DNA of 64,000 nucleotides from an uncultured Chloroflexia bacterium (GCA_963810095.1 CAWEMM010000008.1:96001-160000); one strand, 5' to 3'. Shown: positions 2,321 through 21,165, counted from the stretch's first letter. Notes: generated from the letters alone by a model not told the origin. Numbers and translations: made by a program.

Positions 2321-2370
2321 TTGACAGCGCGGCTGACGTGAGCTAAAATCACATTCAGTGAAATGAATGT
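2321..2370 (+). promoter_or_regulatory. Sigma70 promoter plus ArsR-type operator
   Basis: TTGACA-N17-TAAAAT (2321-2349); inverted repeat ACATTCA-N6-TGAATGT (2351-2370). Confidence 0.8.
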
Positions 2371-2389
2371 ATCTGTGGGGGTCGCAAGA

Positions 2390-2743
2390 ATGGAACCGTT
2401 TCAGGATATTGGCGAGCTGTTCAAACTGCTGTCGCACCCGACCCGCCTAGCAATTCTCGAAATGCTGCGGGGGGGCGAGGAGTGCGTGTGCCATATGACC
2501 GCCATGTTAGGCTCCCGTCAGGCGTATGTATCCCAGCAACTCATGGTCTTGCGCGAGGCGGGCTTCGTAATCGACCGTCGGGACGGCTGGAACATCTACT
2601 ACCGCGTCACGCGCCCCGAGGTGTACGCAGTGCTGGACGCAGCGCGCAAAGCGGTCCCAGTCCGGCCGCCTGAGACCTTCACCTTCAGCAGCATGTCAAA
2701 CGCGTGCCCTTGCCCGAAGTGCCAGGCTGCGGTCACGACTTAG
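2390..2743 (+). CDS. arsR: ArsR/SmtB metalloregulator
   Basis: LSHPTRLAIL, EECVCHM metal box, SQQLMVLREAG helix, C-terminal CPCPKC. Confidence 0.9.
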   Translation: MEPFQDIGELFKLLSHPTRLAILEMLRGGEECVCHMTAMLGSRQAYVSQQLMVLREAGFVIDRRDGWNIYYRVTRPEVYAVLDAARKAVPVRPPETFTFSSMSNACPCPKCQAAVTT

Positions 2744-2776
2744 TTCGTGGATTTCTCTCTCTTTTTTTATCATAAT

Positions 2777-2796
2777 ACATTCACTCGCTTGAATGT
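2777..2796 (+). promoter_or_regulatory. Second copy of the ArsR operator
   Basis: ACATTCA-N6-TGAATGT with arms identical to 2351-2370, upstream of the thioredoxin-arsP genes. Confidence 0.75.
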
Positions 2797-2826
2797 GATT
2801 CTATTCTGCTAACATGGAGAACGACA

Positions 2827-3077
2827 ATGGTCAACATCAAAGTGCTCGGCACAGGATGTGCCAATTGTCAGCGGCTGGAGGCCAGCGTGCGCCGGGTCGT
2901 GGCGACGCAGGGGATCGAGGCCCAGATCGAGAAGGTCACCGACCTGGGCGAGATCATGAAGTACGCCCTCCTGGCCACGCCGGGGCTGGTGATCGACGGC
3001 AAACTGGTCGCGGCCGGCCGCGTGCCTGCCGACAAAGAGATCGCCGGCTGGCTGCCGCGGCGACGCCGTCCGGCTGA
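2827..3077 (+). CDS. Small redox-active disulfide protein (thioredoxin family, MTH895 type); probable frameshift near the 3' end
   Basis: IKVLGTGCANC...TPGLVIDGK...GRVP. Confidence 0.88.
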
Positions 3078-3130
3078 GCCGGATCGCAACGTGCGGTCAG
3101 GAAGTCAGAACTATTTGAGTGGGAGACAAT

Positions 3131-4186
3131 GTGGCAATCCAGGAAACAACGCCAGCGCGGCATAGCCTGCGCGCCGATCTGCCGGTCTACGGCAAGCTCG
3201 CCGCTATCGCCCTGCTGTGGTGGGCGGCCTATTCCGTGTTGCTGCCGGTCAGCCAGTGGCTGACCTACAACGTGCTCGGGTTGGAGCGTGGCTCGCAGGT
3301 GGGCGAGTCGGTGGCCTTTTTCCTCTACGACGTGCCCAAAATCCTGCTCCTGCTCGCGGGCATGATCTTTCTGATCAGCATTGTGCGCACCTTTTTCAGC
3401 CCCGAGCGCACGCGAGCGCTGTTGGGTGGCAAGCGCCAGGGGCTGGGTAACGTGCTGGCGGCCACGCTCGGCATCGTGACCCCCTTCTGCTCCTGCTCGG
3501 CCGTGCCGCTCTTCATCGGGTTTGTCGAGTCGGGCATTCCGCTGGGGGTCACCTTCTCCTTCCTGATCGCCGCGCCGCTGATCAACGAGGTGGCGGTGAT
3601 TATGCTGGGCGGCCTGTTCGGCTGGCGGGTCGCGGCGCTGTATATCGGTACGGGCCTGGTGATCGCCATCGGCGCCGGCTTCGTCATCGGCCGCTTCCAC
3701 CTGGAGCGCTATGTCGAAGATTTCGTCTGGCAGTTGCAGATGGGCGCGAGCGGCCCGCAGGAGCGCCTCAGCTGGCCGGAGCGCATCAGCCGGGCCACGG
3801 ACAGCGTCAAGGAGATCGTCGGCAAGGTCTGGCCCTATGTCATCGTCGGCATTGGGATCGGCGCAGCCATCCACGGCTTCGTGCCCGAGAGCGCCCTGGC
3901 GAACATCATGGGCAAACAGGCGTGGTGGAGCGTGCCGGCGGCCGTACTGCTGGGCATCCCGTTGTATTCCAACGCGGCGGGGGTCATCCCCATCGTCGGC
4001 GCGCTGATCGAGAAAGGCGCCAGCGTGGGCACCGCACTGGCGTTCATGATGGCAGTGGTGGGCCTGAGCCTGCCCGAGATGATCATCCTGCGCCGGGTGC
4101 TCAAACCGCAACTGATCGCGGTCTTCATCGGCGTGCTGGCGCTGGCCATCATCTTTACCGGCTATCTGTTCAACCTGGTCCTGTAA
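3131..4186 (+). CDS. arsP: ArsP/DUF318 permease
   Basis: TPFCSCS, GIPLY, SLPE motifs; multiple TM helices. Confidence 0.88.
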   Translation: MAIQETTPARHSLRADLPVYGKLAAIALLWWAAYSVLLPVSQWLTYNVLGLERGSQVGESVAFFLYDVPKILLLLAGMIFLISIVRTFFSPERTRALLGGKRQGLGNVLAATLGIVTPFCSCSAVPLFIGFVESGIPLGVTFSFLIAAPLINEVAVIMLGGLFGWRVAALYIGTGLVIAIGAGFVIGRFHLERYVEDFVWQLQMGASGPQERLSWPERISRATDSVKEIVGKVWPYVIVGIGIGAAIHGFVPESALANIMGKQAWWSVPAAVLLGIPLYSNAAGVIPIVGALIEKGASVGTALAFMMAVVGLSLPEMIILRRVLKPQLIAVFIGVLALAIIFTGYLFNLVL

Positions 4187-5358: not shown

Positions 5359-6114
5359 ATGAGTCCGACTACCTACATCATCAGCGCCGTGTTGGTGTTC
5401 GTCTTCTCCGGCCTGCTGGCGATGGCCGGGCTGGGCGCGGCATTTCTGTTCGTGCCGCTCTTCTACTATCTCGGCGTCCCGCTGGCCGAGGCCACCCCGA
5501 CCGCCCTGCTGTTGAACGTCGTAAGCCTGTTATTTGCCACGATCAACTACTGGCGCGGCAAGCTGATCAACTTCCGGGTTGGGCTTCCGGTTTTGGTCAC
5601 AGCCGTGATCCTGTCGCCGCTCGGCGCGCGGCTGACACCGCAGATCGACAAGACAGTGCTGCTCGGACTGTTCGCGGCATTTCTGATTTTCGCCGGGTTC
5701 ATGATGCTATTCTACCGGCCGAAGAAACGCGGAGAGCCGCTCAGTCGGACGGTTGAGGTGAGCGCCGGCGTGGGCATCGGCGGCGTGGCGGGCTTCCTGG
5801 GCGGCCTGCTCGGCGTGGGCGGGGGCAATTTTATCCTGCCCGTGCTGAACTGGCTGGGGCTGGATGCAAAGGTGGCGGCTGGCACGACTGCGTTGGTGGT
5901 GGTCTTCGCATCGTTCTCGGGCTTTCTGGGTCACGCCACACTCGGCGGACTCGACCCCGTGTTCATTGGCATCATGGCTGTGATGGCTGCGGCTGGCTCC
6001 ATCGTCGGCTCACAACTGATGAAGACGAAGCTGTCCAGCGCACAACTCAAGCGCATGATCGGCGTGTTGCTGTTGCTGATCGCCGCCAAGATGATCTTTG
6101 ATCTCGTGAAGTAA
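5359..6114 (+). CDS. TauE/SafE-family sulfite exporter
   Basis: GLGAA and GLLGVGGG repeats, about 8 TM helices. Confidence 0.85.
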   Translation: MSPTTYIISAVLVFVFSGLLAMAGLGAAFLFVPLFYYLGVPLAEATPTALLLNVVSLLFATINYWRGKLINFRVGLPVLVTAVILSPLGARLTPQIDKTVLLGLFAAFLIFAGFMMLFYRPKKRGEPLSRTVEVSAGVGIGGVAGFLGGLLGVGGGNFILPVLNWLGLDAKVAAGTTALVVVFASFSGFLGHATLGGLDPVFIGIMAVMAAAGSIVGSQLMKTKLSSAQLKRMIGVLLLLIAAKMIFDLVK

Positions 6115-6172
6115 TTCGAGAGGCGGGCGCCTGGCGTTTCCGCAAATCCAAACCAAGAGAGGTACTTTCCTG

Positions 6173-6778
6173 ATGGACCGCAATGATGAACTGTACAAGG
6201 CCGGCCTGCTGCTGCACGGCCACAAGTGTCCCGCGATGCCGATGGGGCTGCGCGCCGGGCTGGCCGCGCTGGAGGCACTGGGTGCCGAGCGCGCCGCGGA
6301 CGGACAACTGACTGCGCTGATCGAGATCGACAGCGAGCACTGCGCCACCTGCTATGCAGACGGCATCCAGATGGCGACCGGCTGCACCTTCGGCAAGGGC
6401 AACATCCGCAAGCTCGGCTACGGTAAATTCGTGCTGACGCTGGTCGACAACAAGACCGGCCGCAGTGTGCGCGTCGCCACCCGCAACGAGGTGATCAAGC
6501 GCAACCAGGAATCCGAGTTCATCCAATATCGCAAGCGTGGCGTGCCGGCCTCCAAGATTGATCTGGCACTGGTCGAGCCCTACGTGGACTTCATCCTGTG
6601 CGCCCAGGCTGAGGAGTTGTTCAGAATCGGGCCGGTGACGGAGCTGAAGCTCCCGGCGGGCCGGCCGCACGACTTCAACACGATCATCTGCGCCGAGTGC
6701 GGCGAAGTCGCGGTCGAGCGGTACGCCCGGGTCAAGAACGGGCAGATCGTCTGCATGCCCTGCGCGGAGAAGAACTAA
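6173..6778 (+). CDS. FmdE-family protein with C-terminal Zn finger (copy 2)
   Basis: HGHKCPAMPMG, CYADGIQMATGCTFGKGN, CAEC...CMPC. Confidence 0.88.
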   Translation: MDRNDELYKAGLLLHGHKCPAMPMGLRAGLAALEALGAERAADGQLTALIEIDSEHCATCYADGIQMATGCTFGKGNIRKLGYGKFVLTLVDNKTGRSVRVATRNEVIKRNQESEFIQYRKRGVPASKIDLALVEPYVDFILCAQAEELFRIGPVTELKLPAGRPHDFNTIICAECGEVAVERYARVKNGQIVCMPCAEKN

Positions 6779-7182
6779 TGAAAATCGCAGCAGTCACAGA
6801 CGACGGCATTACCATCAGTCAACATTTCGGACGCGCACCCTACTACCTGGTGCTCACGGTCGAGGATGGACGCATCGTGAGCCGCGAGCAGCGCGAGAAG
6901 ATCGCCCATGGTCAGGGGCACAGCCACGGCCAGCCGAACGAGGTGCACCTGGCGGATCAGCCCCACGGCTTCGACCCGGCGTCACAGGACACGCACAGCC
7001 GCATGGCCGCGCCGATAAGCGATTGCCAGATGCTGCTGGCGCGCGGTATGGGGGCCGGGGCGTACGCCAGTTTGGAACAAGCCGGCATTCGACCCATTCT
7101 AACGACCCTCGTCAATATTGAGGAAGCCGCCCTGCAAGCGGCGGCTGGAACGATCGTCGACCACCGCGAACGGCTGCACTAG
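6778..7182 (+). CDS. NifB/NifX-family (FeMo-co-binding fold) protein with His-rich insert
   Basis: MKIAAVTDDG..ISQHFGRAPYY, GMGAGA. Confidence 0.85.
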   Translation: MKIAAVTDDGITISQHFGRAPYYLVLTVEDGRIVSREQREKIAHGQGHSHGQPNEVHLADQPHGFDPASQDTHSRMAAPISDCQMLLARGMGAGAYASLEQAGIRPILTTLVNIEEAALQAAAGTIVDHRERLH

Positions 7183-7212
7183 AAACATCGCTGGTTGTCG
7201 CAAGGGGAAATC

Positions 7213-7971
7213 ATGGATCTGGATGCAATTCGAATCATGGCCGTGCAGATGCACGACATCCTTCAGTTGTCAGCCCCGGCCATCGGCGTCAGCCTTCTGT
7301 TGGAGAGACCAGACGAGGGTATGGGCCGAGCGTTGTCGCAGTATCGCTTCTGCCAGGCGCTGATGCGTGCGCGACACGGTGAAACGGTCACTCTGGACGG
7401 TGGTGGCCTGACATGTCCGGCCGCTGCGGCGGCCTTCGGCTTCCGGCCCTTGCCCGAGGGGTTGAGAAACGGTAGCGGCCTGGTTGGTTTCGGCATCGTG
7501 CAAGACCCGGCCGTCGGACAAAGGATGTTTGAAGAAATGCCGCGGCTAGCGCCCAACCAGATCCACAGCCTGCTCATTTTCCCACTCTCCGACGCGCCGG
7601 TCGTCCCTGACGTGATCGTCGTGGAAGATGAAGTCGAGAAGTTGATGTGGATAAACCTGGCCTACCTGCATGCTAGCGGCGGGAAGCGCATCCACAGCTC
7701 GACCGCCATCCTGCAGGCCACGTGCGTCGATGCCGCCATCATCCCGTATCTCGATAAACGCTTGAACTTCAGCTACGGATGCTATGGCTGCCGCGATGCT
7801 ACCGACCTGGCTGGCTCTGAGACAGTGGTCGGCTTCCCGATCTCCGTGCTGCCTGATATCGTGAAGCATCTTGAATTCCTGGCGCAAAAAGCGATCCCGA
7901 CCTCGCGCGCCAAAAAAGCCTGGGGAGCGCTCAAGGCGAAAGAGCTTCAAGCGGTCGCGACGAACTCCTAA
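7213..7971 (+). CDS. DUF169-family protein
   Basis: RFCQA, TCPAAA, QATCVD, SYGCYGCR. Confidence 0.8.
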   Translation: MDLDAIRIMAVQMHDILQLSAPAIGVSLLLERPDEGMGRALSQYRFCQALMRARHGETVTLDGGGLTCPAAAAAFGFRPLPEGLRNGSGLVGFGIVQDPAVGQRMFEEMPRLAPNQIHSLLIFPLSDAPVVPDVIVVEDEVEKLMWINLAYLHASGGKRIHSSTAILQATCVDAAIIPYLDKRLNFSYGCYGCRDATDLAGSETVVGFPISVLPDIVKHLEFLAQKAIPTSRAKKAWGALKAKELQAVATNS

Positions 7972-8039
7972 TGTCGGCCGCAGCGGGCAGGGGCGCGTTC
8001 GGGACAGTCCAAGATTCATAACAGAGAGGGATTGATATC

Positions 8040-8258
8040 GTGCAACCTTTCATCAACAAACGCCGGTGCCCGGCGCAAGACCAAATCTGCAAGGCGATCC
8101 CGGCCTGCCCGCACGGGGCGATCAGCTATGTCGCCGACGAGACCGAGCGCCTGGGCGGCAAGATTGTCTTCGACTACGACAAGTGCGACGGCTGCGGAAT
8201 CTGCGTGACTGAGTGCTGTGGCAGCGCGATCGATATGCAGCAAGTCGTCGCAACATGA
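8040..8258 (+). CDS. Small 4Fe-4S ferredoxin
   Basis: C...C...CPHGAI and CDGCGICVTECC. Confidence 0.8.
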   Translation: MQPFINKRRCPAQDQICKAIPACPHGAISYVADETERLGGKIVFDYDKCDGCGICVTECCGSAIDMQQVVAT

Positions 8259-8380
8259 CGCGGCTCATGGTCACGCGAGGAAAAACAGGCATATGATGGT
8301 GTATGCAGTAAGGCATATATAGAAATACCCGCATACGGCGCCGGGCACAAGACGCGTGCGCAGCGACGAAGGAGATCGAT

Positions 8381-8830
8381 GTGAGCACCGAGTATCTCGA
8401 AACGACGGTCGACAAGTTCATCTTTCGGGTCAAGGTCGGTTACCTGTACAGCGAAGCCGGCGTGTGGGTGGATTTCGATCCGTCCCGCCAGATCGCACGT
8501 ACGGGCCTAACTGACTTCCGCCAGCAGGCGAGCGGGGACGTCGCGTTCGTCGACCTGCCGGCGGCCGGCGCCACCGTCGCAAGCGGCGGTGACCTGGCGA
8601 ACATCGAAACGATCAAGGTCGATCTCGTCGTGCCGGCGCCGCTAGAGGGCACGGTCGTGGCGGGCAACGAGGCGCTCGGCGACGCTCCGGAACTGATTAA
8701 CCAGCAGCCGTACGGCGATGGCTGGCTGGTCGAACTAACGCCGGCCGCCTGGCCGGCGCCCGGCCTGCTTGACGCGGCAGCCTACCTGGCCGTGATGCAA
8801 GCGCAGGCGGAAGCTGAGGCGAAGCAATGA
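8381..8830 (+). CDS. Glycine-cleavage H-like lipoyl carrier protein (no other gcv genes in the window)
   Basis: GLTDF..GDVAFVDLP, IETIK with the lipoyl Lys, INQQPYGDGWL. Confidence 0.88.
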   Translation: MSTEYLETTVDKFIFRVKVGYLYSEAGVWVDFDPSRQIARTGLTDFRQQASGDVAFVDLPAAGATVASGGDLANIETIKVDLVVPAPLEGTVVAGNEALGDAPELINQQPYGDGWLVELTPAAWPAPGLLDAAAYLAVMQAQAEAEAKQ

Positions 8831-9294
8831 GTGATGAAGCTGAGCAAGCGTCGCTCCCAGGAGCGGCTCGCACAGTGTGCATCGTGCCCTGTAGCGGGAT
8901 TGGCAAAACGTACGGCACGGTGACGCGCGAGGCAGCGTACGTCGTGAGCGAAGAGTTGCGACCGGACACCACGAAGGTGGTCCCCCTCTCGCTGCTCGTG
9001 CTCGGCGACGAGGCGGCGCGTGAGGCCGTGCAGGCGGCGCCAGCGCTCACGCTGGACGGCTGCAAGTTGGCCTGTGCGACGAACCTCGTGCGCCAGTCTG
9101 GGGGCATCGTGGCGCAGGACTTCGTCGTGCTCGACACGTTCCGGAAGAACCGGACGCTCAAGCCGGCGGGCATCGCCGAGCTAAACGACGGCGGGCTGGC
9201 CCTGGCGCGGGCGCTGGCAGACGAGGTCGCGGCGGCGGTAGATGCCGCCGTAGCGACGGATGGTTCATCGACTGGAGGAGAGCACGATGCCTAA
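8827..9294 (+). CDS. DGC-domain putative Zn-binding protein
   Basis: VPCSGIG and LDGCKLAC. Confidence 0.8.
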   Translation: MSDEAEQASLPGAARTVCIVPCSGIGKTYGTVTREAAYVVSEELRPDTTKVVPLSLLVLGDEAAREAVQAAPALTLDGCKLACATNLVRQSGGIVAQDFVVLDTFRKNRTLKPAGIAELNDGGLALARALADEVAAAVDAAVATDGSSTGGEHDA

Positions 9295-10022
9295 TCTACC
9301 AAAGCGCAAGGTGGGCATCGTCGCCTGTTCGGGCGAGGAGCTGCCCGGCGGCACGGTCACCCGGCTGGCGGCGCTCAAGGTGCTCGAGCATCTGCGACCG
9401 GATCAGACGGTGACAATCTGCTTGCCGCTATTCCTGGCCGGTGGCGAAGGCGACCGGGCATTTGCGAAGTTCTACCCGACCATCGCCGTCGACGGCTGCG
9501 AGAAGCGCTGCGCCGCCCGGGCGACCGAGATGTACAGCAATAAGCCGGCGGCAAGCATCGTGCTGGACGAGCTGCTGACCGAGCACGGCCTGCCGCAGCC
9601 GATAGGGAAGCGCCGGCTGACGCGCGAGAGCGGCCGGGCGGTGGATGCACTGGCCGATGCCATCGCGGTGGAAGTGGATCACTTGATGGCGGTGCGCTGG
9701 AGCCGCAGCGAAGGTACGATCCTGGAGGCCGGCCCGGATGCCGGAGCGGTCAGCACGTCGGCCTGCGCCTGTGGTTCGGGAATCCCTGTGACGACGGTGC
9801 AAGTGGGCGAGCAAGCCGTCGAGATCATGGCCCTCGTGCCGATCATGGAACTGGCTTATCAGCAAGGGTTGCGCGCCAACGGCGCTCTGCCGCCGCAGAT
9901 ACTTCAGACGGTGCAGGTGTACAACACCGTGCCCGCCGGCGAGGAAGCGCTGTTACGCGCAAGCCGTTGAACTGGCGTGGGCGGCGTACTGTATGGAACG
10001 TGAGGGGCAGAACCATGGCTAA
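9287..10022 (+). CDS. DGC-domain protein with C-terminal extension (probable frameshift near 9960)
   Basis: ACSGE, ICLPLF, VDGCEKRC, CACGSG. Confidence 0.78.
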
Positions 10023-10491
10023 GACGGCGACGTATCACACTGAGGTCGAGTGGCGCGGGGAACACACGGGGCAGATCGTCATGGGCAACGGGCCGGAGAT
10101 GCCGTTCTCAGCCCCGCCCGATGCTTACGGGCAGGCCGGGGTGCTGACGCCGGAGGATGCTTTCGTGGCCGCGGCCAACACCTGCGTCATGATGATGTTC
10201 CTGTGGGCGTGTGAACGGTTCAAGATTGACCTGGTCGACTACCGCTGCCGGACCGAAGGGACCAAGAAGATCGAGCTCGACCGGACCGAAATCTTCACGC
10301 ACCTGCGCTTCTGGCCGCAGATTACCGTGCGCGCCGATGTCGACGGGGATGCGAGCAGCACCGAAAAGAGGGTTCACAAAGCCCTTGCGTCCGCCCAGAA
10401 GTACAGCCTCGTCGCCAACTCGGTCAAGAGCGAGATTGTCGTGGAACCTCACATCACGGTTCTCGCCGGCGCCGCCGAGGCAGTGCGATGA
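10015..10491 (+). CDS. OsmC/Ohr-family protein
   Basis: TPEDAFVAAANTC retains the first Cys; KYSLVANSV has Ser where the second Cys usually is. Confidence 0.82.
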   Translation: MAKTATYHTEVEWRGEHTGQIVMGNGPEMPFSAPPDAYGQAGVLTPEDAFVAAANTCVMMMFLWACERFKIDLVDYRCRTEGTKKIELDRTEIFTHLRFWPQITVRADVDGDASSTEKRVHKALASAQKYSLVANSVKSEIVVEPHITVLAGAAEAVR

Positions 10492-10841
10492 CGACCGACT
10501 ACCAAGCCTATTACAAGCACCTGGAAGAGCGCCTGACCGAGTTGGGCCGGGAGCAGCCCGGTCCGATGAGCGGCTTCGCCCGGTTGCACAAGAAGGCCGT
10601 CGAGGACGGCGCGCTCAGTGCCAAGACCAAGGAACTGATGGCATTGGCGATCAGCATCGCGGTGCGCTGCGAGGGGTGTATCGCCTATCACGTCCACGCT
10701 GCGATTGCTGCGGGCGCGACACGGCCCGAGCTGCTGGAGACGATTAGCGTCGCCGTCTTAATGGGCGGCGGCCCGGCCTCCATGTACGCGGCGCATGCGC
10801 TGGATGCGATCGAGCAGTTCGGAGCGCCGCCCGGAAGCTGA
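10488..10841 (+). CDS. Carboxymuconolactone decarboxylase/AhpD-family protein
   Basis: KELMALAISIAVRCEGCIAYH, MGGGP. Confidence 0.88.
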   Translation: MTTDYQAYYKHLEERLTELGREQPGPMSGFARLHKKAVEDGALSAKTKELMALAISIAVRCEGCIAYHVHAAIAAGATRPELLETISVAVLMGGGPASMYAAHALDAIEQFGAPPGS

Positions 10842-10854
10842 AGAAGAGGCAACA

Positions 10855-11398
10855 GTGTCAAAGCAACGCCAGCAAGCAGCTCGAGCATCGCAAAACCAGC
10901 ACCCCGACCACGGCGGGTCGCCGTCGGGTTGGCGGCGTGCTTACCGTCCTCATCCTGGCGAGCGTAGTGCTGGCGCTGGGGGCGATCCTCCTCTTGAAGG
11001 AAGGGCGGCCGCCGACGTCAACGATCGTCAACCCGCCGCCCGGCAGCGCTGCGCCGGCCGGCAGCGCGACGGCGGTCGGATCGGCAGCGGACCAGTTGCA
11101 GGCGGCGCTGGCGGCAAACAAGCCGGCCCTCGTCTTCATGCATTCGACCACCTGCCAGTCCTGCATCGACATGATGCATGTCGTGGATCAGGTTTACCCG
11201 GAGTTTGCCGCTCAGATCGCCCTCGTGGATGTCGATGTCTATGACGAGGCTAACGAACCGCTGATGCAAGTGCTGGGCCTACGCTATATACCCACGATCG
11301 TCGTGTATGACCGGGCCGGCAAGGCCGCACAGAATGTGGGCGCCATGAAAGCCGATGCCTTCCGCACTTTCCTGCGCCAGCGCGCCTTGGGCGGCTGA
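10855..11398 (+). CDS. Membrane-anchored thioredoxin (frameshift in 5' part)
   Basis: One TM helix, TCQSC, IPT cis-Pro loop. Confidence 0.78.
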
Positions 11399-11399
11399 G

Positions 11400-12074
11400 A
11401 TGGACTGGGACTTTTCGGTCATCCAGCACATCTCGCCCCTGGCGATCGCGCTGGTCTTTGCGGGCGGCGTGGTGACAAGCATCGGCCCGTGTAACATGGC
11501 CATGATCCCGTTGATCATCGGCTACGTCGGTGGCAGCCGGGATTTGTCACGCGGGCGCAGCTTCGTCCTCTCCACCACCTTTGCAACCGGGCTCGCCATC
11601 ACCTTCATGATGCTGGGGGTGGTCGTGTCGTTCGTCGGCGGGCTGATCGGGACCGGCCACAAGTGGTTCTACTATGGGGTCGCCGGGGTCTGCCTGCTGA
11701 TTGGACTGCAACTGCTGGGGGTCATTCACCTGCCGATGCCCGACTTCCTGGCCGAACGCAGGCAGCGCATGGCCTGGCGGGGTGTGCCGGGAGCCATGGC
11801 GTTGGGGCTGGTCTCGGGATTGGTCGCCTCGCAATGCGCAACACCGGTATTGGCCGCGATCCTGACGTACGTTATGGCGGAAGGTGCGATCGCATACGGC
11901 GCAGCTCTGTTGTTCATTTATGCGCTCGGACGCGGGGTGCCCATCGTACTCGCGGGGACCTTTGCGGGAGTGCTCAAGCAGTTCCGCGTTTTCGGCCGCT
12001 GGTCGGGGGCGATGGAGAAGGTAAGCGGCGTGATTATCATTGGCGTGGCGTTGTACCTGGTGTGGCTGGCGTGA
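11400..12074 (+). CDS. ccdA: CcdA/DsbD-beta transmembrane electron transporter
   Basis: SIGPCNMAMIP and SQCATPVL, about 6 TM helices. Confidence 0.85.
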   Translation: MDWDFSVIQHISPLAIALVFAGGVVTSIGPCNMAMIPLIIGYVGGSRDLSRGRSFVLSTTFATGLAITFMMLGVVVSFVGGLIGTGHKWFYYGVAGVCLLIGLQLLGVIHLPMPDFLAERRQRMAWRGVPGAMALGLVSGLVASQCATPVLAAILTYVMAEGAIAYGAALLFIYALGRGVPIVLAGTFAGVLKQFRVFGRWSGAMEKVSGVIIIGVALYLVWLA

Positions 12075-12096
12075 GAAACGAAAGATAAGGGGTGCG

Positions 12097-12363
12097 ATGA
12101 CGGCTACACCGCAGATCACGATATTACCGGCGCAGGGCTGCCGGCGTAGCCGCAAGCTGCTGGCATACCTGCAGGCGCATGACGTCCCTTTCACGCGCAT
12201 CGAGCTCGACTCAGCGGAAGGCGCGGCGCTGGCGGCCCAGTACGATCTGCGGGCCTCGCCCGGCATTCTGATTGATGGGGTCAGCATCAACCCGTTTGAT
12301 TTGCTGATCCAGCCAGCCTGCCGCGTGGATGAGGCGAAGGCACGCGAGCTGTTTGCTGCGTAG
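12097..12363 (+). CDS. Glutaredoxin-like protein (CxxS)
   Basis: GCRRSRKL...ASPGILIDG. Confidence 0.7.
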   Translation: MTATPQITILPAQGCRRSRKLLAYLQAHDVPFTRIELDSAEGAALAAQYDLRASPGILIDGVSINPFDLLIQPACRVDEAKARELFAA

Positions 12364-12429
12364 CGCCGCGGCCGAGGGCGTACGGACGGCAGAGCACAGC
12401 CTGAACAACCCCTACCTGAAGGAACCCAT

Positions 12430-12603
12430 ATGCCGAAGGTATCTGTAGTGCTCGACGAGCAAGAGCAGCAAGAACTGCAGATGATCCTGACCGATGCGGA
12501 CGATGAGGCGGCACTGCGCTTCTTGAAGGAAGTGGTGTGGGCGCAGGTGCAGGCGGCGCGGCGCAAGGGTTTGCGCAGCCACCTGGAGGCAGGCCAGTCG
12601 TAG
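12430..12603 (+). CDS. Small 57-aa hypothetical protein (missing from the ORF track)
   Basis: AAGGA then ATG; MPKVSVVLDEQEQQELQMILTDADDEAALRFLKEVV...AGQS*; fills the operon gap. Confidence 0.65.
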   Translation: MPKVSVVLDEQEQQELQMILTDADDEAALRFLKEVVWAQVQAARRKGLRSHLEAGQS

Positions 12604-12619: not shown

Positions 12620-13222
12620 GTGGAGGGCAATTTGACCAGCCGATCAGAAGATACTGAGCCTCTCGTAGGCGCCATAACCCTGGTTCGCACCTTGCCCTGC
12701 CTGGCCGAGCCGGGGAAGATCATCGTCGTCGGGGAGCCGGACGCGACGATCGACGCCGCGTTGCCACTCCTCAACGCCATCCTGCCCAATGTCATCAGCT
12801 ATTACCCCTTGGCCGGCGTCATGACATTGCGACGGCGGCCGGGGCTCATCACGCTCTATCCTCGCCGCGTCACGATCACCCAGGTGGCGGACGTGGAAGA
12901 GGGGCTAACGCTGCTGGCCGCGGTGCGCGACCTGGTCAACCAGGCCTGGTCGCGCCGGAACGAAATCCAGCCGAAGACCGAAAGCCGGCGGGTGCCTCGC
13001 CCGCTGGATGTTTACGAGCTGCTGCCGCGATCGAATTGCAGGTCGTGCGGCGCGGCGACGTGCATGGCGTTCGCCTTCGGACTTCTAGAAAGCCGCTATC
13101 AGCCCGGGGAGTGTCCTGTGCTGGGCGAGGCGGCATTCGACGCGCGGCGCCAGGCGCTCATTGACATGCTGCCGCCACAAGAAGACGGCAGCCCGCGGCC
13201 GGTCAACCTGCATGCCCTATAG
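12620..13222 (+). CDS. (Fe-S)-binding protein, paralog of 1740-2300
   Basis: LPCLAEPGK; LPRSNCRSCGAATCMAFA...CP. Confidence 0.78.
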   Translation: MEGNLTSRSEDTEPLVGAITLVRTLPCLAEPGKIIVVGEPDATIDAALPLLNAILPNVISYYPLAGVMTLRRRPGLITLYPRRVTITQVADVEEGLTLLAAVRDLVNQAWSRRNEIQPKTESRRVPRPLDVYELLPRSNCRSCGAATCMAFAFGLLESRYQPGECPVLGEAAFDARRQALIDMLPPQEDGSPRPVNLHAL

Positions 13223-13231
13223 GGGCAGAAA

Positions 13232-13912
13232 GTGAGCAGTCCCGTGTCCGTCATTACCATCTCCCGGGAGTTCGGAAGCGTCGAGGACGACTTTGGTGAG
13301 CGCGTGGCACACGAGCTGGGGTACCACTGCGTGTGCAAAGAGTTTATCGCCGACGTGTTAGCGCAATACGGCTTGATCGAGTTCGAGCGGGAATACGAAT
13401 CCAAGCCGGGCTTCTGGAACAGCCTGAGTGCCCTGCGGGGTGAGCGACGCAGCGACGTTGTGGCCATGCTCAATCAGGTGCTACAAGCGGTTGCCAAGCA
13501 CGGCAACGTGGTTATCCAGGGGCGCAGCGGCTTTGCGGCCCTGCGCGGGTTGGCCGACGTCTTGCACGTGCGCCTGCAAGCCCCGCTCGAGGCGCGTATC
13601 GAGCGTGTGGCCGGAGAACAGCGCATTACGCTCGACGAGGCTAGCCGGATCGTGAAGGAAGGCGACGGGGTGCGGACGGGGTTCGTGGAAGGGTTCTACG
13701 GGGTGCCGTGGAATTCTATCCAGGCATTCGATCTCGTAATCAACACCCAAAAGGTCGCCACTGAAGCAGCTGTAGCCTGGGTAGCTGAGGCGGCAAGAGC
13801 GCTCGCACTGCGCCCGACCGGCGGTCAGCCGTGCGCCGGCGACCTGGCAGTAGACGACGTTCTGGCGCGGGAGGTCGTGCGGCAGCTCGAGAAGCCTGCG
13901 CGGGCGTGCTGA
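13232..13912 (+). CDS. Cytidylate-kinase-like family protein
   Basis: VITISREFGS, NVVIQGR, LHVRLQAPLEARIERV, FDLVINT. Confidence 0.8.
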   Translation: MSSPVSVITISREFGSVEDDFGERVAHELGYHCVCKEFIADVLAQYGLIEFEREYESKPGFWNSLSALRGERRSDVVAMLNQVLQAVAKHGNVVIQGRSGFAALRGLADVLHVRLQAPLEARIERVAGEQRITLDEASRIVKEGDGVRTGFVEGFYGVPWNSIQAFDLVINTQKVATEAAVAWVAEAARALALRPTGGQPCAGDLAVDDVLAREVVRQLEKPARAC

Positions 13913-14070
13913 CGACACGATGTTCGGAACGGGAGAACGAGCGCAGACAAGGCGCCCGTTCTCCTGGCTGCAGGCCTTCACAGATGTACTTCAGCCGCAA
14001 TTGCATTGTCTCGCTCCCGTCGGCGCCCCATGAGCGTTGAGAGGATCGCCCGACTCGCGCATTTTATCAC

Positions 14071-14130
14071 TTGACAGGCAGTGGGCTGCGTGGTAATATG
14101 TCGGACATCGATATATAGACCTCCGACATA
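14071..14130 (+). promoter_or_regulatory. Sigma70 promoter plus PadR operator
   Basis: TTGACA-N17-TAATAT; inverted repeat TATGTCGGA-N16-TCCGACATA (14097-14130). Confidence 0.72.
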
Positions 14131-14141
14131 AGAGAGGCGTC

Positions 14142-14504
14142 ATGCCACTAGAAGACCCAGGATATTGGAAAGCGCTCGTCAACATGGGCCTGTCGCGCTT
14201 CTTCGTGCTCCGCACGTTACATGAGCGTCCAACGCACGGCTATGCGCTGCTCGACAGCCTCAGTATCTTCACGGAGGGTTGCTGTACCCCCGCCTATGGC
14301 ACGATCTACCCGATCTTGAAGGAACTCGTGGAGGGCGACTATGCGCGAGTAACTGTGGAGTCCGATGGCGGGCGCCAGCGCAAAGTATACGAGCTGACCC
14401 CGCGCGGCGAACTAGCCTACCAGACGGCCATGCAGACCTGGCAGGAAGTGCTCCCCTACATCGAACGCGCTGTGCGAGAAAGCAAAGAGGCGATCAATGA
14501 CTGA
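14142..14504 (+). CDS. PadR-family regulator with vicinal Cys pair
   Basis: PTHGYAL, EGCCTPAYGTIYPIL, RKVYELTPRG. Confidence 0.88.
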   Translation: MPLEDPGYWKALVNMGLSRFFVLRTLHERPTHGYALLDSLSIFTEGCCTPAYGTIYPILKELVEGDYARVTVESDGGRQRKVYELTPRGELAYQTAMQTWQEVLPYIERAVRESKEAIND

Positions 14505-15435
14505 CACGCTACTTCGTTCCGGACAGTTCTTTCTGACCATCCTGGTCGAATTGATCCCACTGTTCCTTATCGTCACGTTCCTTTCCGGGCTCGCGCTGGA
14601 GTACATCTCGCCCGAGAAGCTGCGCCAGGGGCTGAGCGGTAGAAAAGGCATCGTCGGCCAGACGGCGGCTATGGGACTTGGCTGGGTGACGCCCTTCTGT
14701 TCTTGCTCCACGATCCCGATCCTGGCGAGCATGGTGAAGGCCGGCATCCCCATTGGGATTATGACCACCTTTCTGTATGCCTCGCCGTATCCCGTCGAAA
14801 TCGCGATCCCCATCCTGGCGCCCCTGTTCGGCGTGCCTACGGCGGCGGCATTCATGTTCGCGGGCGGCGCGATCGCCCTGACCATGGGCGTCGTCGTGGA
14901 GCACCTCGGGTGGCAACGCCAGATCAAGACCGCGGTCATCGAAAGCAGCGCGGGTGGGTTGGGCGATGCCAGCATCGACCTGGCCGGTGTTGGCCTGGTC
15001 CTCGCGCTGGACGACAGCTTCAGGGGCAAGGCCACGCGTGCGGGTGCATACACGCTGGACTTCGCCCGCAGACTGCTGCCGATCATCATCGTCAGCAGCG
15101 CCATCGGGGCGCTGATCTACGGCTTCATTCCTGAGGAGTGGATCCTGCGCTATGCGGGCGGCACGAGCCTGTTGGTCGTCCCCATCGCCGCGCTCATCGG
15201 CGTTCCTCTCTACGTCAACGCGGCAGCCGTCGTGCCGATCATCTACTCGCTCTCGCTAAAGGGCATGAGCGAGGGCGCCGTGATCGCCTTCCTGATCACC
15301 GCCACGACTATCAGCCCGCCCGAGATCATCATGTTGTCTGCCCTTTTCAAGCAGAAGTATGTCTGGGCGTTTGTCCTGGCCATGATCGTCGGTGCCATCA
15401 TCACCGGCTACCTGTTCAACCTGATTGCTCGCTAG
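14497..15435 (+). CDS. arsP: ArsP/DUF318 permease (copy 2)
   Basis: TPFCSCS, GVPLYV, SPPE. Confidence 0.85.
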   Translation: MTDTLLRSGQFFLTILVELIPLFLIVTFLSGLALEYISPEKLRQGLSGRKGIVGQTAAMGLGWVTPFCSCSTIPILASMVKAGIPIGIMTTFLYASPYPVEIAIPILAPLFGVPTAAAFMFAGGAIALTMGVVVEHLGWQRQIKTAVIESSAGGLGDASIDLAGVGLVLALDDSFRGKATRAGAYTLDFARRLLPIIIVSSAIGALIYGFIPEEWILRYAGGTSLLVVPIAALIGVPLYVNAAAVVPIIYSLSLKGMSEGAVIAFLITATTISPPEIIMLSALFKQKYVWAFVLAMIVGAIITGYLFNLIAR

Positions 15436-15458
15436 TCACACCAACGGAGGATGATCCA

Positions 15459-17463: not shown

Positions 17464-18243
17464 ATGAGCACGTATCCTAACGGTCGCGCACCGGAAATCT
17501 TCAGGCTGCTGGCGAACGATTTACGTTGGCAGCTGATCGTCGCGCTTGCCCGATCGGACCTTAAGGTGCAGGAATTGGCCGCTCGGACGGACCGGCCACA
17601 AAACCTCGTCTCCTATCATCTCAAGGAGCTCCGCGCGGCGGAGCTGGTTGTCGAGCGGCGTAGCAGCGCAGACGCGCGCGACGTCTACTATAGTCTCGAC
17701 CTCGGCCGGCTCCGCGACCGATTGCTCGAGAGTGGGCAAGTCCTCCATGCAGTTCTGGGAAGCTCCGGTCGGTCATCACGGATAATCGCCGAACGGGAAT
17801 TGCCCGTATCGGTCCTATTCTTATGCACCCGCAATAGTGCGCGCTCCCAGATGGCCGAAGCCCTACTACGGGCGCGCGGTCCGGCGTCGCTGCACGTCTG
17901 CAGCGCAGGCAGTGAGCCGGCTGCTGTTCATCCGTTGGCAATCGAAGCGATGGCCGAGATGGGCATTGACCTGCGCGGGCACGTGGCGAAGCACTTTGAG
18001 CAGCTCGTGGGGCAACACTTCGACTATGTGATCACGGTATGCGACCGCGTGCGCGAGGTCTGCCCCGTCTTTGCGGACGAATCCGAAGCGATCCACTGGA
18101 GCTTGCCCGACCCTGCAGCCGTGACTGGCTCGCCGGCCGAGCGCTATAAGGCGTTCCGGGAGACCGCCGCGGAGCTCACTACCCGCATTGATTTCCTATT
18201 GCCAGCCCTATTGAGTGACTATTCGAAAGGAAGAGACGCGTGA
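17464..18243 (+). CDS. ArsR-ArsC fusion protein
   Basis: N-terminal ArsR HTH (VSYHLKELR) plus LMWP domain CTRNSARS...VCD...VCP...DP. Confidence 0.88.
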   Translation: MSTYPNGRAPEIFRLLANDLRWQLIVALARSDLKVQELAARTDRPQNLVSYHLKELRAAELVVERRSSADARDVYYSLDLGRLRDRLLESGQVLHAVLGSSGRSSRIIAERELPVSVLFLCTRNSARSQMAEALLRARGPASLHVCSAGSEPAAVHPLAIEAMAEMGIDLRGHVAKHFEQLVGQHFDYVITVCDRVREVCPVFADESEAIHWSLPDPAAVTGSPAERYKAFRETAAELTTRIDFLLPALLSDYSKGRDA

Positions 18244-18695
18244 GCAAGGTGAACGTACTGTTCTTGTGCACCGGCAACTCGGCGCGCAGCCAGATGGCGG
18301 AGGCATTCCTCCGCGCGTATGGCGGCGAGCAATTTGAGGCGTTCAGCGCAGGGCTGGATCCGAAAGACATCAGCCCCTACACACGACAGGTGATGGCGGA
18401 GCGCGGCTACGACCTGGCCGGCCAGCGCTCCAAAAATGTCAGCGAATACCTGGCCAAGAAGCACTTCGGCTACCTGATCACCGTGTGCGGTCAGGCTGAG
18501 CAGAACTGCCCGCGGGCGTTCATGGGCATGGGGCGCCGCGTGCATTGGGACCTGGAGGACCCGGCGGCATTCGTGGGGACGGATGAGCAGATACTCGAAA
18601 AGTACCGTCAGGTGCGCGACGAGGTCGAGGCACGAGTTCGTGGTTGGGTCGCCGAGACGCGACCGACACTGCAGGGAGTGAATCTGAATGGCTAA
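18240..18695 (+). CDS. arsC: Thioredoxin-dependent arsenate reductase (LMWP family)
   Basis: CTGNSARSQMAE, VCG...NCP, DP. Confidence 0.9.
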   Translation: MSKVNVLFLCTGNSARSQMAEAFLRAYGGEQFEAFSAGLDPKDISPYTRQVMAERGYDLAGQRSKNVSEYLAKKHFGYLITVCGQAEQNCPRAFMGMGRRVHWDLEDPAAFVGTDEQILEKYRQVRDEVEARVRGWVAETRPTLQGVNLNG

Positions 18696-19116
18696 GCGAC
18701 GAGTGTTGTTTCTATGCACCGGCAACTCCTGCCGCAGCCAATTGGCCGAAGCGATCGTCAACGCGCGCCTGGGCGATGAGTGGGAGGCGTATAGTGCGGG
18801 TACGCAGCCAGCGGGCTATGTTCACCCGTTGGCCGTGAAGGTCTTACGGGAGAACGGTATCGAGCACGAAGGGCGCTCGAAGAGTGCCAACGAGTACCGC
18901 GACATGGCGTTCGACCTTGTCGTGACGGTCTGTGACGATGCCGCCGAGAACTGCCCGGTGTGGTTGGGCAAGGGGCGGCGGGTCCACCTCGGCTTTCCCG
19001 ATCCCGCCAAGGCAACGGGCAGCGCGGACGAGGTGCTGGCCGTGTTCCGGCGCGTGAGAGACGATATTGCACTCCGGGTCACTGAGCTTCTGGAGGAGAC
19101 AAAACTCGGGGCTTGA
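18688..19116 (+). CDS. arsC: Thioredoxin-dependent arsenate reductase (LMWP family)
   Basis: CTGNSCRSQ, VCDDAAENCP, FPDP. Confidence 0.92.
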   Translation: MAKRRVLFLCTGNSCRSQLAEAIVNARLGDEWEAYSAGTQPAGYVHPLAVKVLRENGIEHEGRSKSANEYRDMAFDLVVTVCDDAAENCPVWLGKGRRVHLGFPDPAKATGSADEVLAVFRRVRDDIALRVTELLEETKLGA

Positions 19117-19147
19117 CAAATCGCGAACTATATCGTATAAATACGAT
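19113..19147 (+). promoter_or_regulatory. Promoter plus ArsR operator
   Basis: TTGACA at 19113; palindrome ATCGTAT-AA-ATACGAT; related TCATCG-N8-CGATGA at 19609-19628 before arsM. Confidence 0.7.
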
Positions 19148-19183
19148 GTGAATTGCGAGAGCAGATAGGCGGGGTTGGACGAA

Positions 19184-19570
19184 ATGGACACGATCACATT
19201 GCAGGAACGACGTAACACCCAGGACGAAGAGCGGCTGGTGCAGATGTTGAAAGCGCTGGGCAATCCCATCCGCTTTCGGATCATGCAGACGCTGGCCGAG
19301 CGCAAGACGTGCATTACGCAGGAGATCGTCGACACCACGCCGCTCGCCCAGTCCACTGTCAGCCAGCATCTGAAAGTGCTACGCGAGGCTGGGCTGATCG
19401 ACGGCGAGACCGAGGGGCCGGCGACCTGCTACTGCCTCAGCGAGTCGGGCATCCGGTGGCTTAAGGAACAGATCGAAGGCTGGTTGCCAGGCTGCTGCAC
19501 CCCGAGCACTGGCAGGGTGCGCGACTTCGCGCCGGTGGACATCAAGGCGGCGAGCGGCTGCTGCAGCTGA
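19184..19570 (+). CDS. arsR: ArsR-family regulator
   Basis: KALGNPIRFRI, QSTVSQHLKVLREAG, GPATCYC, C-terminal CC..CC. Confidence 0.9.
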   Translation: MDTITLQERRNTQDEERLVQMLKALGNPIRFRIMQTLAERKTCITQEIVDTTPLAQSTVSQHLKVLREAGLIDGETEGPATCYCLSESGIRWLKEQIEGWLPGCCTPSTGRVRDFAPVDIKAASGCCS

Positions 19571-19656
19571 GCTACTCCGGCTTGACGGTGCTATTTTTTT
19601 GAGGTCAATCATCGTAATTAGCCGATGAAATCCAACCAAGATAGGGAGATCGCATC

Positions 19657-21165
19657 ATGACGACCATGAGCGTAACGGGCAAGGCCACTATGCCTCGGGC
19701 TTCAGCCGAGTACTTCGAACGGGTGGCGGGCGAGTGGGACAGCCTGCGCAGTGGCTACTTCGGGGAGGCCGTGCGAGACGCGGCGATTGCGCGGTCATAC
19801 CTGCGGCCAGAGATGGTCGTGGCCGACATCGGCTCGGGCACCGGGTTCATGGCAGCAGGGCTCGCGCCACTGGTCGCCAAGGTCTACGCGGTCGATGGCT
19901 CGGAGGCGATGCTCGAGGTGGCGCGCGAGAAGCTGGCGAGCTTCGGTAATGTAGAGCTGCAACTGGCCGATGGCGCGACGCTGCCGTTTGACGACGCGGC
20001 GCTGGATGCGGTCTTCGCGAACATGTACCTGCACCACTGCCCCGATCCACAAGCAGCTATCACCGAGATGGTGCGGGTGCTCAAGCCCGGCGGCCGCCTG
20101 GTGATCACGGACATGGACCAGCATGAGCACACCTGGCTGCGCGACGAAATGGCGGACGTCTGGCTGGGCTTCGCGCGGCAGGACCTGCGAGCGTGGTTCC
20201 GGACGGCGGGATTAGTGAACATCATCGTCGACCGCACCGGCGAGACCTGCAGTTCAAAGTCGACGAGCTGTGCAGGGGAAGGCATGGCGGATATCAGCAT
20301 CTTCGTTGCTACCGGCAGCCGGCGGGTGAGCGGTGCAAAGGACGCGGTGCAGGAGAATTACGGCGCGCTGGCGGTCAACGGGGGGTGCTGTGGCTCGACC
20401 TCATCGCAGAGCAGCTGCTGCTCGACGTCGGACAGCGGCTCGCCAGCGAGCGGCTCGCCAGCGAGCAATTGCTGTTCTCCCGCTTCGAACGCTATGGAAC
20501 TGGTCGAAGCCGGAGACCCGGACCTGGTCCTGTGGGAGACGGGGTACACCGCCGAGCAGATCAGCCTGGTGCCCGCCGAGGCGGTGAATCTCTCGCTAGG
20601 GTGCGGCAATCCGACGGCGATGGCATCGTTGAAGCCGGGCGAGACGGTACTGGATATCGGGAGTGGCGCGGGGATCGACGCCTTCTATGCAGCCAAGCGT
20701 GTTGGACCTGAAGGGCATGTGATTGGACTGGACATGACGCCGGCCATGATCGAGCGGGCGGAGCGATCCGCAGAGGAAGCGGGGCTGACGCAGGTCGAGT
20801 TTCGGCTCGGCCAGGCGGAAGAGATGCCGGTCGAGGATGGAACGGTTGACGTGATCCTGTCCAACTGCGTCATCAACCTCGCTGAGGACAAAGGCCGGGT
20901 CTTTGAAGAGGCGCACCGGGTACTAAAGTCGGGCGGGCGGTTGAGCATCAGCGACATGGTCACCGCCGGGCCGCTGCCGATGAGCCTTCGGAGCGATCCT
21001 GAGATGTGGGCGGGGTGTATCAATGGCGCCCTGCCCGAACGGGAGTATCTGGACCTGGTGCGGCAGGCCGGGTTTGTCGATGTGGTTGGGACGCGGAGCT
21101 TGAGCGGGGGCGAGTTGGAGGGTATCGAGGTGTACAGCCTGGGGGTCTCGGGGAGGAAGGGATAA
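19657..21165 (+). CDS. arsM: Arsenite S-adenosylmethionine methyltransferase fused to an N-terminal second class I methyltransferase
   Basis: Two SAM motifs (DIGSGTG; DIGSGAG); ArsM cysteines SLGCGNP, SNCVINL, WAGCING; CC-rich linker. Confidence 0.9.
   Translation: MTTMSVTGKATMPRASAEYFERVAGEWDSLRSGYFGEAVRDAAIARSYLRPEMVVADIGSGTGFMAAGLAPLVAKVYAVDGSEAMLEVAREKLASFGNVELQLADGATLPFDDAALDAVFANMYLHHCPDPQAAITEMVRVLKPGGRLVITDMDQHEHTWLRDEMADVWLGFARQDLRAWFRTAGLVNIIVDRTGETCSSKSTSCAGEGMADISIFVATGSRRVSGAKDAVQENYGALAVNGGCCGSTSSQSSCCSTSDSGSPASGSPASNCCSPASNAMELVEAGDPDLVLWETGYTAEQISLVPAEAVNLSLGCGNPTAMASLKPGETVLDIGSGAGIDAFYAAKRVGPEGHVIGLDMTPAMIERAERSAEEAGLTQVEFRLGQAEEMPVEDGTVDVILSNCVINLAEDKGRVFEEAHRVLKSGGRLSISDMVTAGPLPMSLRSDPEMWAGCINGALPEREYLDLVRQAGFVDVVGTRSLSGGELEGIEVYSLGVSGRKG

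Follow-up and report, generated by a model that had tools for sequence, protein, structure and literature searches.

A Conserved gcvH-like–dgc–dgc–osmC-like Gene Module in Arsenic Clusters: a Candidate Lipoyl-Carrier Thiol Relay

Gene content of the locus and its conserved unit

We analyzed a 64,000-nucleotide stretch of DNA (referred to here as the window) from an uncultured Chloroflexia bacterium (GCA_963810095.1 CAWEMM010000008.1:96001-160000), in which a gene for a GcvH-like lipoyl carrier opens a run of thiol-redox genes at positions 8381 to 12603, within an arsenic gene cluster. An earlier sequence-only reading had proposed that these genes encode a dedicated lipoyl relay tied to arsenic, with AhpD, CcdA, and glutaredoxin (Grx) among its partners. 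The arsenic cluster is real, and all of the named open reading frames (two DGC proteins, OsmC, AhpD/CMD, thioredoxin, CcdA, and Grx) are present, the Grx match being weak. The conserved unit, however, is gcvH-like–dgc1–dgc2–osmC-like, usually accompanied by genes for an ArsE-type thioredoxin and ArsR. The features of the window are as follows, with the core genes first.

8381..8830, plus strand, GcvH-like lipoyl carrier (core; PF01597, E 1.6e-25)
8827..9294, plus strand, DGC1 (core; passes the PF08859 cutoff)
9287..10022, plus strand, DGC2 (core; PF08859; the uninterrupted open reading frame ends at 9970)
10015..10491, plus strand, non-canonical OsmC-like protein (core; PF02566)
10488..10841, plus strand, AhpD/CMD protein (accessory; C61xxC64; TIGR00778 score 44.6 against a cutoff of 27.8)
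10855..11398, plus strand, thioredoxin (CQSC) with a hydrophobic N-terminal anchor (accessory; open frame from 10937)
11400..12074, plus strand, CcdA/DsbD-TM protein (accessory; C31 and C146)
12097..12363, plus strand, Grx-like protein, CxxS (accessory; weak, PF00462 below cutoff)
12430..12603, plus strand, 57-residue open reading frame without a family, unlinked to the module
2363..4186, plus strand, upstream context: arsR (CVC plus a C-terminal Cys), an ArsE/MTH895-type thioredoxin gene (2827-3165), and arsP
17464..21165, plus strand, downstream context: arsR-arsC fusion, two arsC-like genes, arsR, and arsM (NF008823 above cutoff)
8300..8319, plus strand, candidate ArsR-type operator 5' of the gcvH-like gene: a 7-6-7 inverted repeat with 6 of 7 pairs, weak alone

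The gene overlaps at 8827, 9287, and 10488 were confirmed, whereas dgc2 and osmC overlap only through a probable frameshift near 9950-9955, the other frame running to 10022 and matching the tails of homologs. The thioredoxin gene probably starts at 10855, behind a frameshift, to judge from its ribosome-binding site. Probable single-base frameshifts were seen at 252-1650, 3060-3165, 9950-9970, 10855-10937, and elsewhere in the window, and suggest an error-prone assembly rather than pseudogenes. The window starts with a C-terminal fragment of Acr3, and the arsenic block downstream of the module spans 14497-21165 (arsP, arsR-arsC, two arsC, arsR, and arsM). Searches of the 64-kb window with tblastn gave no match to gcvT or gcvP, as the sequence-only reading had held, nor to lpd, lipA, or lipoate ligase.

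For comparison across genomes, we used the best 80 loci among at least 600 rows of one GTDB scan, which comprised 27 members of the carrier's subfamily and, as controls, 53 canonical gcvH loci of similar mean length; neighboring genes were counted by tblastn with bit-score thresholds of our own setting. The 27 loci come from diverse bacteria and archaea, most of them uncultured: 16 lie in Chloroflexota, 5 in Acidobacteriota or Aminicenantes, 3 in deltaproteobacterial genomes, and 1 each in Verrucomicrobiota, Asgard, and Vulcanimicrobiota genomes. The nearest locus is in an Anaerolineae genome, which together with one named Chloroflexi match suggests that the window comes from a Chloroflexota host. 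The dgc1 gene follows the H gene in 26 of the 27 loci and dgc2 follows in 25, the exceptions being L007, which ends, and L029, a fusion with another gene order; osmC was found in 22 loci, and 3 of the 5 misses fall at contig ends. ArsE-type thioredoxin, the usual fifth gene of the module, occurs in 19/27 loci and ArsR in 21/27, each against 0/53 controls.

Arsenic-specific genes recur beside the module as well: Acr3 in 10 loci, ArsC-like in 8, ArsM in 4, ArsP in 3, ArsG in 2 (true ArsG, in L004 and L023), and ArsA/D in 1, each absent from all 53 controls, with ArsD separately present in L020. The NCBIfam cutoffs were passed by 9/10 Acr3 and 4/4 ArsM proteins. Any such gene was found alongside in 13/27 loci versus 0/53 controls, so that within this sample the module does not lie mainly outside arsenic contexts. 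When ArsR and ArsE are also counted, the figures become 25/27 and 0/53, and the two remaining misses are L018 (4 kb) and L024 (Acr3 fragment at the edge). Such neighbors are spread over Chloroflexota, Acidobacteriota, deltaproteobacteria, Vulcanimicrobiota, and an Asgard archaeon. Linked gcvT or gcvP was found in none of the 27 loci versus 28 of the 53 controls, 25 controls also being without these genes nearby.

The accessory genes of the window are far less regular. AhpD, the membrane thioredoxin, CcdA, and Grx (2, 3, 5, and 1 of the 27 loci at threshold) were ruled out as core parts, and the 57-residue open reading frame was found in 0/27; L029 has an additional partial Pfam match to AhpD. 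The partners put forward in the sequence-only reading thus gave way to the DGC pair and the ArsE-type thioredoxin, which are central instead. The window CcdA was also ruled out as ArsG, with no match to model NF040495 at E 0.01. In a plasmid collection, only canonical gcvH appeared among the 20 of 152 records listed, DGC1 had no match, and OsmC had distant matches only (at most 32% identity among the matches listed).

Carrier, DGC pair, and OsmC-like protein

Lys-79 of the GcvH-like protein aligns with the lipoyl lysine of Escherichia coli, as had been claimed, and the model (predicted local distance difference test [pLDDT], 95.6) has the H-protein fold, with a root mean square deviation (rmsd) of 1.1 A to 3A7L and an additional N-terminal hairpin (D11-K12-F13). 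The protein has no Cys and an isoelectric point (pI) of 4.05. Residues D11-K12-F13, E76, K79, and G90 are kept in 27/27 loci and K79 and E76 in 119/119 close matches, and the DKF motif is found in 0/53 canonical H proteins. An unrooted quick tree placed the subfamily (28 rows) on a branch separate from the 53 canonical proteins, with a Shimodaira-Hasegawa-like approximate likelihood ratio test (SH-aLRT) value of 99. The carrier is thus a candidate for lipoylation on K79, to which E76, G90, and the acidic pI point indirectly. Among relatives of the H-like protein, a few have lost the lipoyl Lys (P0124, P0161, P0188, and P0248), P0122 has three H domains fused to an FAD oxidase-CCG enzyme, and P0208 has an Lpd-like domain fused to an H domain.

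Three known identities were considered for the carrier and ruled out. A canonical glycine-cleavage GcvH is contradicted by scores below the NCBIfam gcvH cutoffs (88.8 versus 115.85 and 97.2 versus 117), by the lack of gcvT and gcvP in all 27 loci, and by the separate branch; the fused members in L025 and L029 narrowly exceed these cutoffs, and relatives are therefore annotated as gcvH. LbpA of sHdr sulfur oxidation is likewise a GcvH-like lipoate-binding protein (PMC6067878, PMC10332631), with a dedicated role outside the glycine cleavage system and its own lipoylation genes in some loci, but it has two Cys and a basic ligase-binding surface, whereas the carrier is Cys-free and acidic and is found with a LipA-type synthase in an arsenic context. 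A preprint (10.64898/2026.10.01.755906) associates recognition by canonical ligases with an acidic surface and LbpA with a pair of Cys, and because the carrier is acidic and Cys-free we place it with the GcvH type; its pI fits GcvH-type ligase substrates. No shdr genes were seen among the 102 of 505 predicted neighbor genes scanned, a survey that did not include a direct shdr query. GcvH-L, encoded in the lplA2-SirTM-macrodomain operon of Staphylococcus and Streptococcus, is likewise a stress-linked orphan lipoyl carrier; the similarity to it is weak (5A35, E 2.7e-4), and the neighbors here are dgc, dgc, and osmC, not LplA2, SirTM, and a macrodomain.

The two DGC proteins are rich in conserved cysteines. 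In DGC1, C22, K27, R34, C79, and C83 are invariant (26/26), and a fourth Cys is absent here and in 19/26 relatives, whereas DGC2 has four invariant Cys (C14, C45, C71, and C75) together with R26 in 25/25 loci; the CxC cysteines of the DGC2 tail, where the tail is present, are kept in 18/18 and 17/18. That C-terminal domain (window 9700-10022) consists of the CxC, a hairpin, and a three-helix part, was modeled with confidence in the L028 homolog, and is missing from L019 and L022-L025; it had no Pfam or Atlas match, and its four short homologs are maybe fragments. As for the DGC domain itself, a profile search found no solved homologs, an Atlas search with DGC1 returned DGC clusters only, and no Foldseek match reached E 0.001. 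With a best VIA-align Z of only 8.6 in addition, the fold is a generic alpha/beta one from which no function follows; the match to the ArsC fold (Z 6.3, rmsd 3.1, 102 aligned residues, rank 47) lies within background.

Fusions tie the DGC domain to the carrier: they account for 12 of the 31 long representatives selected from 150 among the matches listed, and they also occur in L025 and L029. A quick tree divided DGC1, DGC2, and most fused DGC domains (11/14) into three groups. A DGC gene of unknown function has been described in the arsR5-arsP-arsE-DND132_2314 operon of P. mercurii ND132, for which the accessible part of the report names no H gene (10.1101/2022.10.17.512643). Thus, PF08859 stands beside arsP and arsE there as well, whereas the present module has two DGC paralogs alongside a lipoyl carrier, or DGC fused to it.

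Structure prediction brought the three proteins together. The predicted DGC1·DGC2·H three-chain complex scored 0.69, compared with 0.01 for the best of three controls and 0.00 when DGC2 was replaced; the score mark is reached by 116/157 solved complexes and 2/215 mismatched pairs, rates that are only rough for this job. The runs agreed in at least 92% of contacts, with partner pLDDT values of at least 90. H residues 9 and 11-14 are predicted to contact DGC2 42-44 and 54-59, and the residues flanking K79 (H 53-56, 76, and 78) to contact DGC1 28-29, 78-80, and 102-113; docking is therefore predicted to go through the signature DKF hairpin, with the lipoyl hairpin facing C79 of DGC1. This prediction supports, but does not show, binding among DGC1, DGC2, and the H-like protein.

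The OsmC-like protein has three Cys, not the single one that had been counted, and C57 and C78 are invariant (22/22 loci and 120/120 matches). In Ohr/OsmC enzymes, the peroxidatic and resolving Cys, the Arg, and the Glu are defined, and reduction is carried out by lipoylated proteins (PMC5962072). The peroxidatic C57 and catalytic E47 are kept here in 120/120 matches, but the resolving position, which aligns to the AEKYC of Ta0195, is S131 (Ser in 120/120 matches and 21/21 loci), and the position of the Ohr catalytic Arg is H17 (His in 119/120 matches, from weak Ohr alignments with E 0.03-0.05). The protein thus belongs to the OsmC family and yet fails two defining features of its peroxidases, since Ser stands in for the resolving Cys and His for the catalytic Arg; that it is not a classical peroxidase, as previously suggested, holds for this reason and not on account of a lone Cys. 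H17, R68, R90, K129, and S131 form a conserved site, and the strand register would put C78 close to C57.

Lipoate supply, regulation, and further neighboring genes

LipA and lipoate ligase are encoded in 3/27 loci (L022-L024) and Lpd in two of them (L022 and L024). The L022 genes run H-dgc-dgc-osmC-lpd-lipA-ligase with acr3 nearby on the opposite strand, those of L023 run acr3-H-dgc-dgc-osmC-lipA-ligase, and L024 has lpd and lipA, with the ligase detected by a tblastn match. Lpd passes TIGR01350 and LipA passes the NCBIfam lipoyl synthase models; the ligases match PF21948 and reach no NCBIfam cutoff. Co-encoded lipA, ligase, and lpd are the best evidence that the carrier may be lipoylated and redox cycled. 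In two loci, one of an Asgard archaeon and one of a Vulcanimicrobiota genome (L025, 8873-9581; L029, 816-1494), a Cys-rich 130-residue protein with no Pfam match and a ferredoxin precede the DGC-GcvH fusion. The former may resemble the N-terminal Fe-S domain of HdrA and could be an alternative electron input. Besides, L008 has a Grx-thioredoxin reductase-like fusion (8483-9700) divergent from the H gene, a possible reductant source.

Gene arrangement and candidate operators suggest possible ArsR control of the module. A CxC site was read by eye in the alignment of 18/22 neighboring ArsR proteins, and the sequence ATTCAA-N6-TTGAAT was found in 4/80 loci, all of the subfamily (0/53 controls), lying 5' of arsR in L004 and 5' of the H gene in L020, L021, and L028. 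The 7/7 palindromes of the latter three were equalled by 2, 5, and 6 of 500 shuffles. Overall, 7-6-7 palindromes stood clearly above shuffles in 4/15 upstream regions, a test that missed the arsR1 box of the window because it overlaps the assumed start. The best sigma-70 site 5' of the H gene matched at 9/12 only.

Several further genes were seen around the module. The window carries, in pieces at 252-1621, a radical SAM/SPASM gene that resembles TIGR04317 (tungsten-cofactor maturase) below its cutoff; such a gene occurs in 5/27 loci (L004, L011, L014 at 8708-9958, L015, and L019 at 12859-14148), in L014 and L015 with arsR as its immediate neighbor on one side and the H gene on the other, and its product in L019 has an AbrB-like N terminus. 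Genes for CopZ-N-like, two FmdE, TauE, NifX-like, DUF169, and ferredoxin proteins lie at 3922-8258, and TauE, FmdE, and DUF169 matches are seen again 5' of the module in L020 (2265-5684). PF04060 Fe-S proteins also recur (window 1725-2300 and 12620-13222; L004, 11581-12111; L023, 3633-4181), and in L004 a PF04060 gene is inserted between dgc2 and osmC. The ArsM of the window (19657-21165) has an extra N-terminal methyltransferase domain, giving two methyltransferase domains and a Cys-rich linker. Farther downstream, MutS-like ATPase domains, a molybdate/tungstate-type ABC transporter, two APC transporters, and a kdp operon with two KdpE-like regulators were recognized by eye at 29012-32747, 33998-36632, and 50021-63348.

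Candidate relay for trivalent arsenic and its alternatives

The module is real and conserved, and appears to be an undescribed version of a lipoyl relay that is strongly linked to arsenic. No description of it, and no lipoate-based arsenic resistance system, was found among the records listed in searches of the open literature, subscription journals lying largely outside this coverage, and passages of selenoprotein papers mention neither DGC nor GcvH. What survives of the sequence-only reading is the idea of a dedicated lipoyl relay tied to arsenic genes, for which synteny, the lipoate genes, the DGC-GcvH fusions, and the predicted complex all argue; its set of partners does not. We consider it likely that the module is an arsenic-responsive lipoyl relay in this broad sense. 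The specific chemistry that we prefer, an ArsR-controlled lipoyl-carrier thiol relay handling trivalent arsenic, is put forward tentatively, with close to an even chance of being right.

In this scheme, LipA together with a ligase or octanoyltransferase would lipoylate K79 of the H-like protein, and Lpd with NADH would keep the arm reduced. As(III) can be bound by as many as three thiols and by dihydrolipoamide (PMC3368394). The H-like protein is predicted to dock through its DKF hairpin on DGC2 and to bring its lipoyl hairpin up to the Cys face of DGC1, and its dihydrolipoyl arm would pick up As(III) or its methylated form, MAs(III), either free in the cytosol or bound to poisoned dithiol proteins; the relay would in this way capture or strip these species or repair their targets. 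The arsenic might then be exchanged onto DGC cysteines and passed, probably via the ArsE-type thioredoxin, to Acr3 or ArsP for efflux or to ArsM. As a second thiol partner fed by the lipoyl arm, the OsmC-like protein (C57/C78) may be re-reduced by the same arm, as its family suggests, and AhpD, the membrane thioredoxin, CcdA, and Grx would be local add-ons. The fuller proposal, held still more tentatively, is that a DGC1-DGC2 heterodimer takes As(III) or MAs(III) from the lipoyl arm while reduction or release of arsenicals falls to the remodeled OsmC, with NADH as the driving force in place of glutathione or thioredoxin reductase. The metallochaperone ArsD binds As(III) with three Cys and passes it to ArsA; the likeness, drawn by description, lies in the proposed logic of a Cys-based As(III) hand-off only.

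Several points weigh against this reading. The module is known here from genes, conservation, linkage, and a predicted complex. At the thresholds set, 14/27 loci have no arsenic-specific gene, and for 12 of these 14 the sole link is ArsR and/or ArsE, neither of which is confined to arsenic systems; the ArsC-like matches fall under the NCBIfam cutoffs. With 16/27 loci from Chloroflexota and all drawn from the best 80 among at least 600 rows, the loci are not independent, and a Fisher p of 6e-8 overstates the arsenic linkage because they are related. Neither this window nor 24/27 of the loci carry lpd, lipA, or the ligase, which makes it necessary to assume that the host supplies these enzymes. 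The operator at 8300..8319 is not significant, being equalled by 37/500 shuffles. A three-Cys site in DGC1 is not universal, since 7/26 relatives have a fourth Cys, and Zn or Fe-S binding by DGC is equally possible; the 11/14 fused DGC domains form a third clade that is neither DGC1 nor DGC2. The complex job, with three chains and its own alignments, is unlike the calibration and gives no affinity. Furthermore, we know of no route for As(III) release from such a site.

Two alternatives are about equally unlikely in our judgment. According to the first, the module is a lipoyl-dependent reductase, in which NADH, Lpd, and the lipoyl-H protein feed either C57/C78 of the OsmC-like protein or the two DGCs so that As(V), MAs(V), or DMAs(V) is reduced for efflux or methylation. 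Dihydrolipoate is able to reduce As(V) species, the presence of Lpd in the operon implies that electrons turn over, and Acr3 and ArsM are neighbors; the remodeled OsmC site with its five conserved residues and, in both DGCs, the Cys and Arg that invariably follow the first strand also speak for it. The module is no ArsC replacement, however, with ArsC-like genes in 8/27 loci and three in this cluster; the likeness of DGC to the ArsC fold does not clearly rise above background, and OsmC was undetected in L025 and L029 (the latter a 5-kb contig).

The second holds that a general peroxide or disulfide relay of the Lpd-H-OsmC type is co-induced through ArsR against arsenic-linked oxidative stress, or recharges the thiols of ArsE, ArsC, or ArsM, with no direct contact with arsenic. 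Such relays are the nearest precedent by analogy: in work of 2016, Nyvltova reportedly described peroxide detoxification by Lpd, H protein, and OsmC in hydrogenosomes of Trichomonas vaginalis. There and in H. denitrificans (Hden_1299/Hden_1301), the lipoyl redox carrier is likewise an orphan H protein, taken to work alongside Lpd and a member of the OsmC family, and in H. denitrificans the product of a gcvH-like gene near osmC is proposed as the electron donor of OsmC (10.64898/2026.10.01.755906). The reduction of Ohr/OsmC enzymes by lipoylated proteins (PMC5962072) and the ArsE-type thioredoxin in 19/27 loci agree with this idea. The OsmC here, in contrast, lacks both the resolving Cys and the catalytic Arg, replaced in 119-120/120 matches, and has a new Cys; moreover, two DGC proteins are near-obligate and the context is ArsR/Acr3/ArsM, so that a peroxide relay leaves the DGC pair and the predicted DKF docking unexplained. 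A dithiol arm poisoned by arsenite would also make a poor antioxidant under arsenite unless the arsenic were removed as well. The mycobacterial AhpC-AhpD-lipoyl E2 relay (PMC12440151) offers a related comparison. In the Lpd-lipoyl E2-AhpD-AhpC chain of Mycobacterium tuberculosis, a lipoyl arm likewise joins NADH to thiol proteins via an adaptor, and the window does hold an AhpD/CMD gene; the carrier here is a stand-alone H protein, though, AhpD occurs in 2-3/27 loci, and the DGC pair is the likely adaptor.

It is decidedly improbable that the H-like protein is a lipoate reserve or decoy that mops up As(III) or keeps fresh lipoyl groups in stock for poisoned 2-oxoacid and glycine complexes. The lipA and ligase genes of three loci favor this idea, as does the storage and transfer of lipoate under stress by GcvH-L of Staphylococcus aureus, but such a role has no need of the DGC pair, adjacent in 25/27 loci, or of OsmC, adjacent in 22/27, and amidotransferase, SirTM, and macrodomain genes were all absent among the 102 neighbors scanned. 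Least probable is the same relay serving another thiophilic metal or metalloid (Sb, Hg, Cu, or Cd) or metal-cofactor handling, with arsenic linked through shared resistance islands: the CopZ-N, FmdE, TauE, NifX-like, and tungsten-maturase-like radical SAM genes of the window cluster, the cation-efflux genes in L008 and L020, and ArsR/SmtB CxC sites, which are not arsenic-exclusive, speak for it, but Acr3 (10/27) and ArsM (4/27) recur across phyla, whereas other metal transporter families each recur in few loci at most.

The orphan DGC domain gains a testable partner and interface, a non-canonical OsmC subfamily is defined, and many annotations as glycine cleavage H protein are flagged as misannotations. 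An operon of the L022 type, which unites the carrier, its partners, Lpd, LipA, and ligase, makes the system directly reconstitutable. Dihydrolipoamide is a classic victim of arsenite; if the fuller proposal above is true, this textbook arsenite target would have been turned into a detoxification catalyst, and PF08859 would receive its first function. With a conserved lipoyl relay in the ars operons of an Asgard archaeon and several phyla of bacteria, arsenic cycling would gain a mechanism in lineages common in soil, sediment, and groundwater samples.

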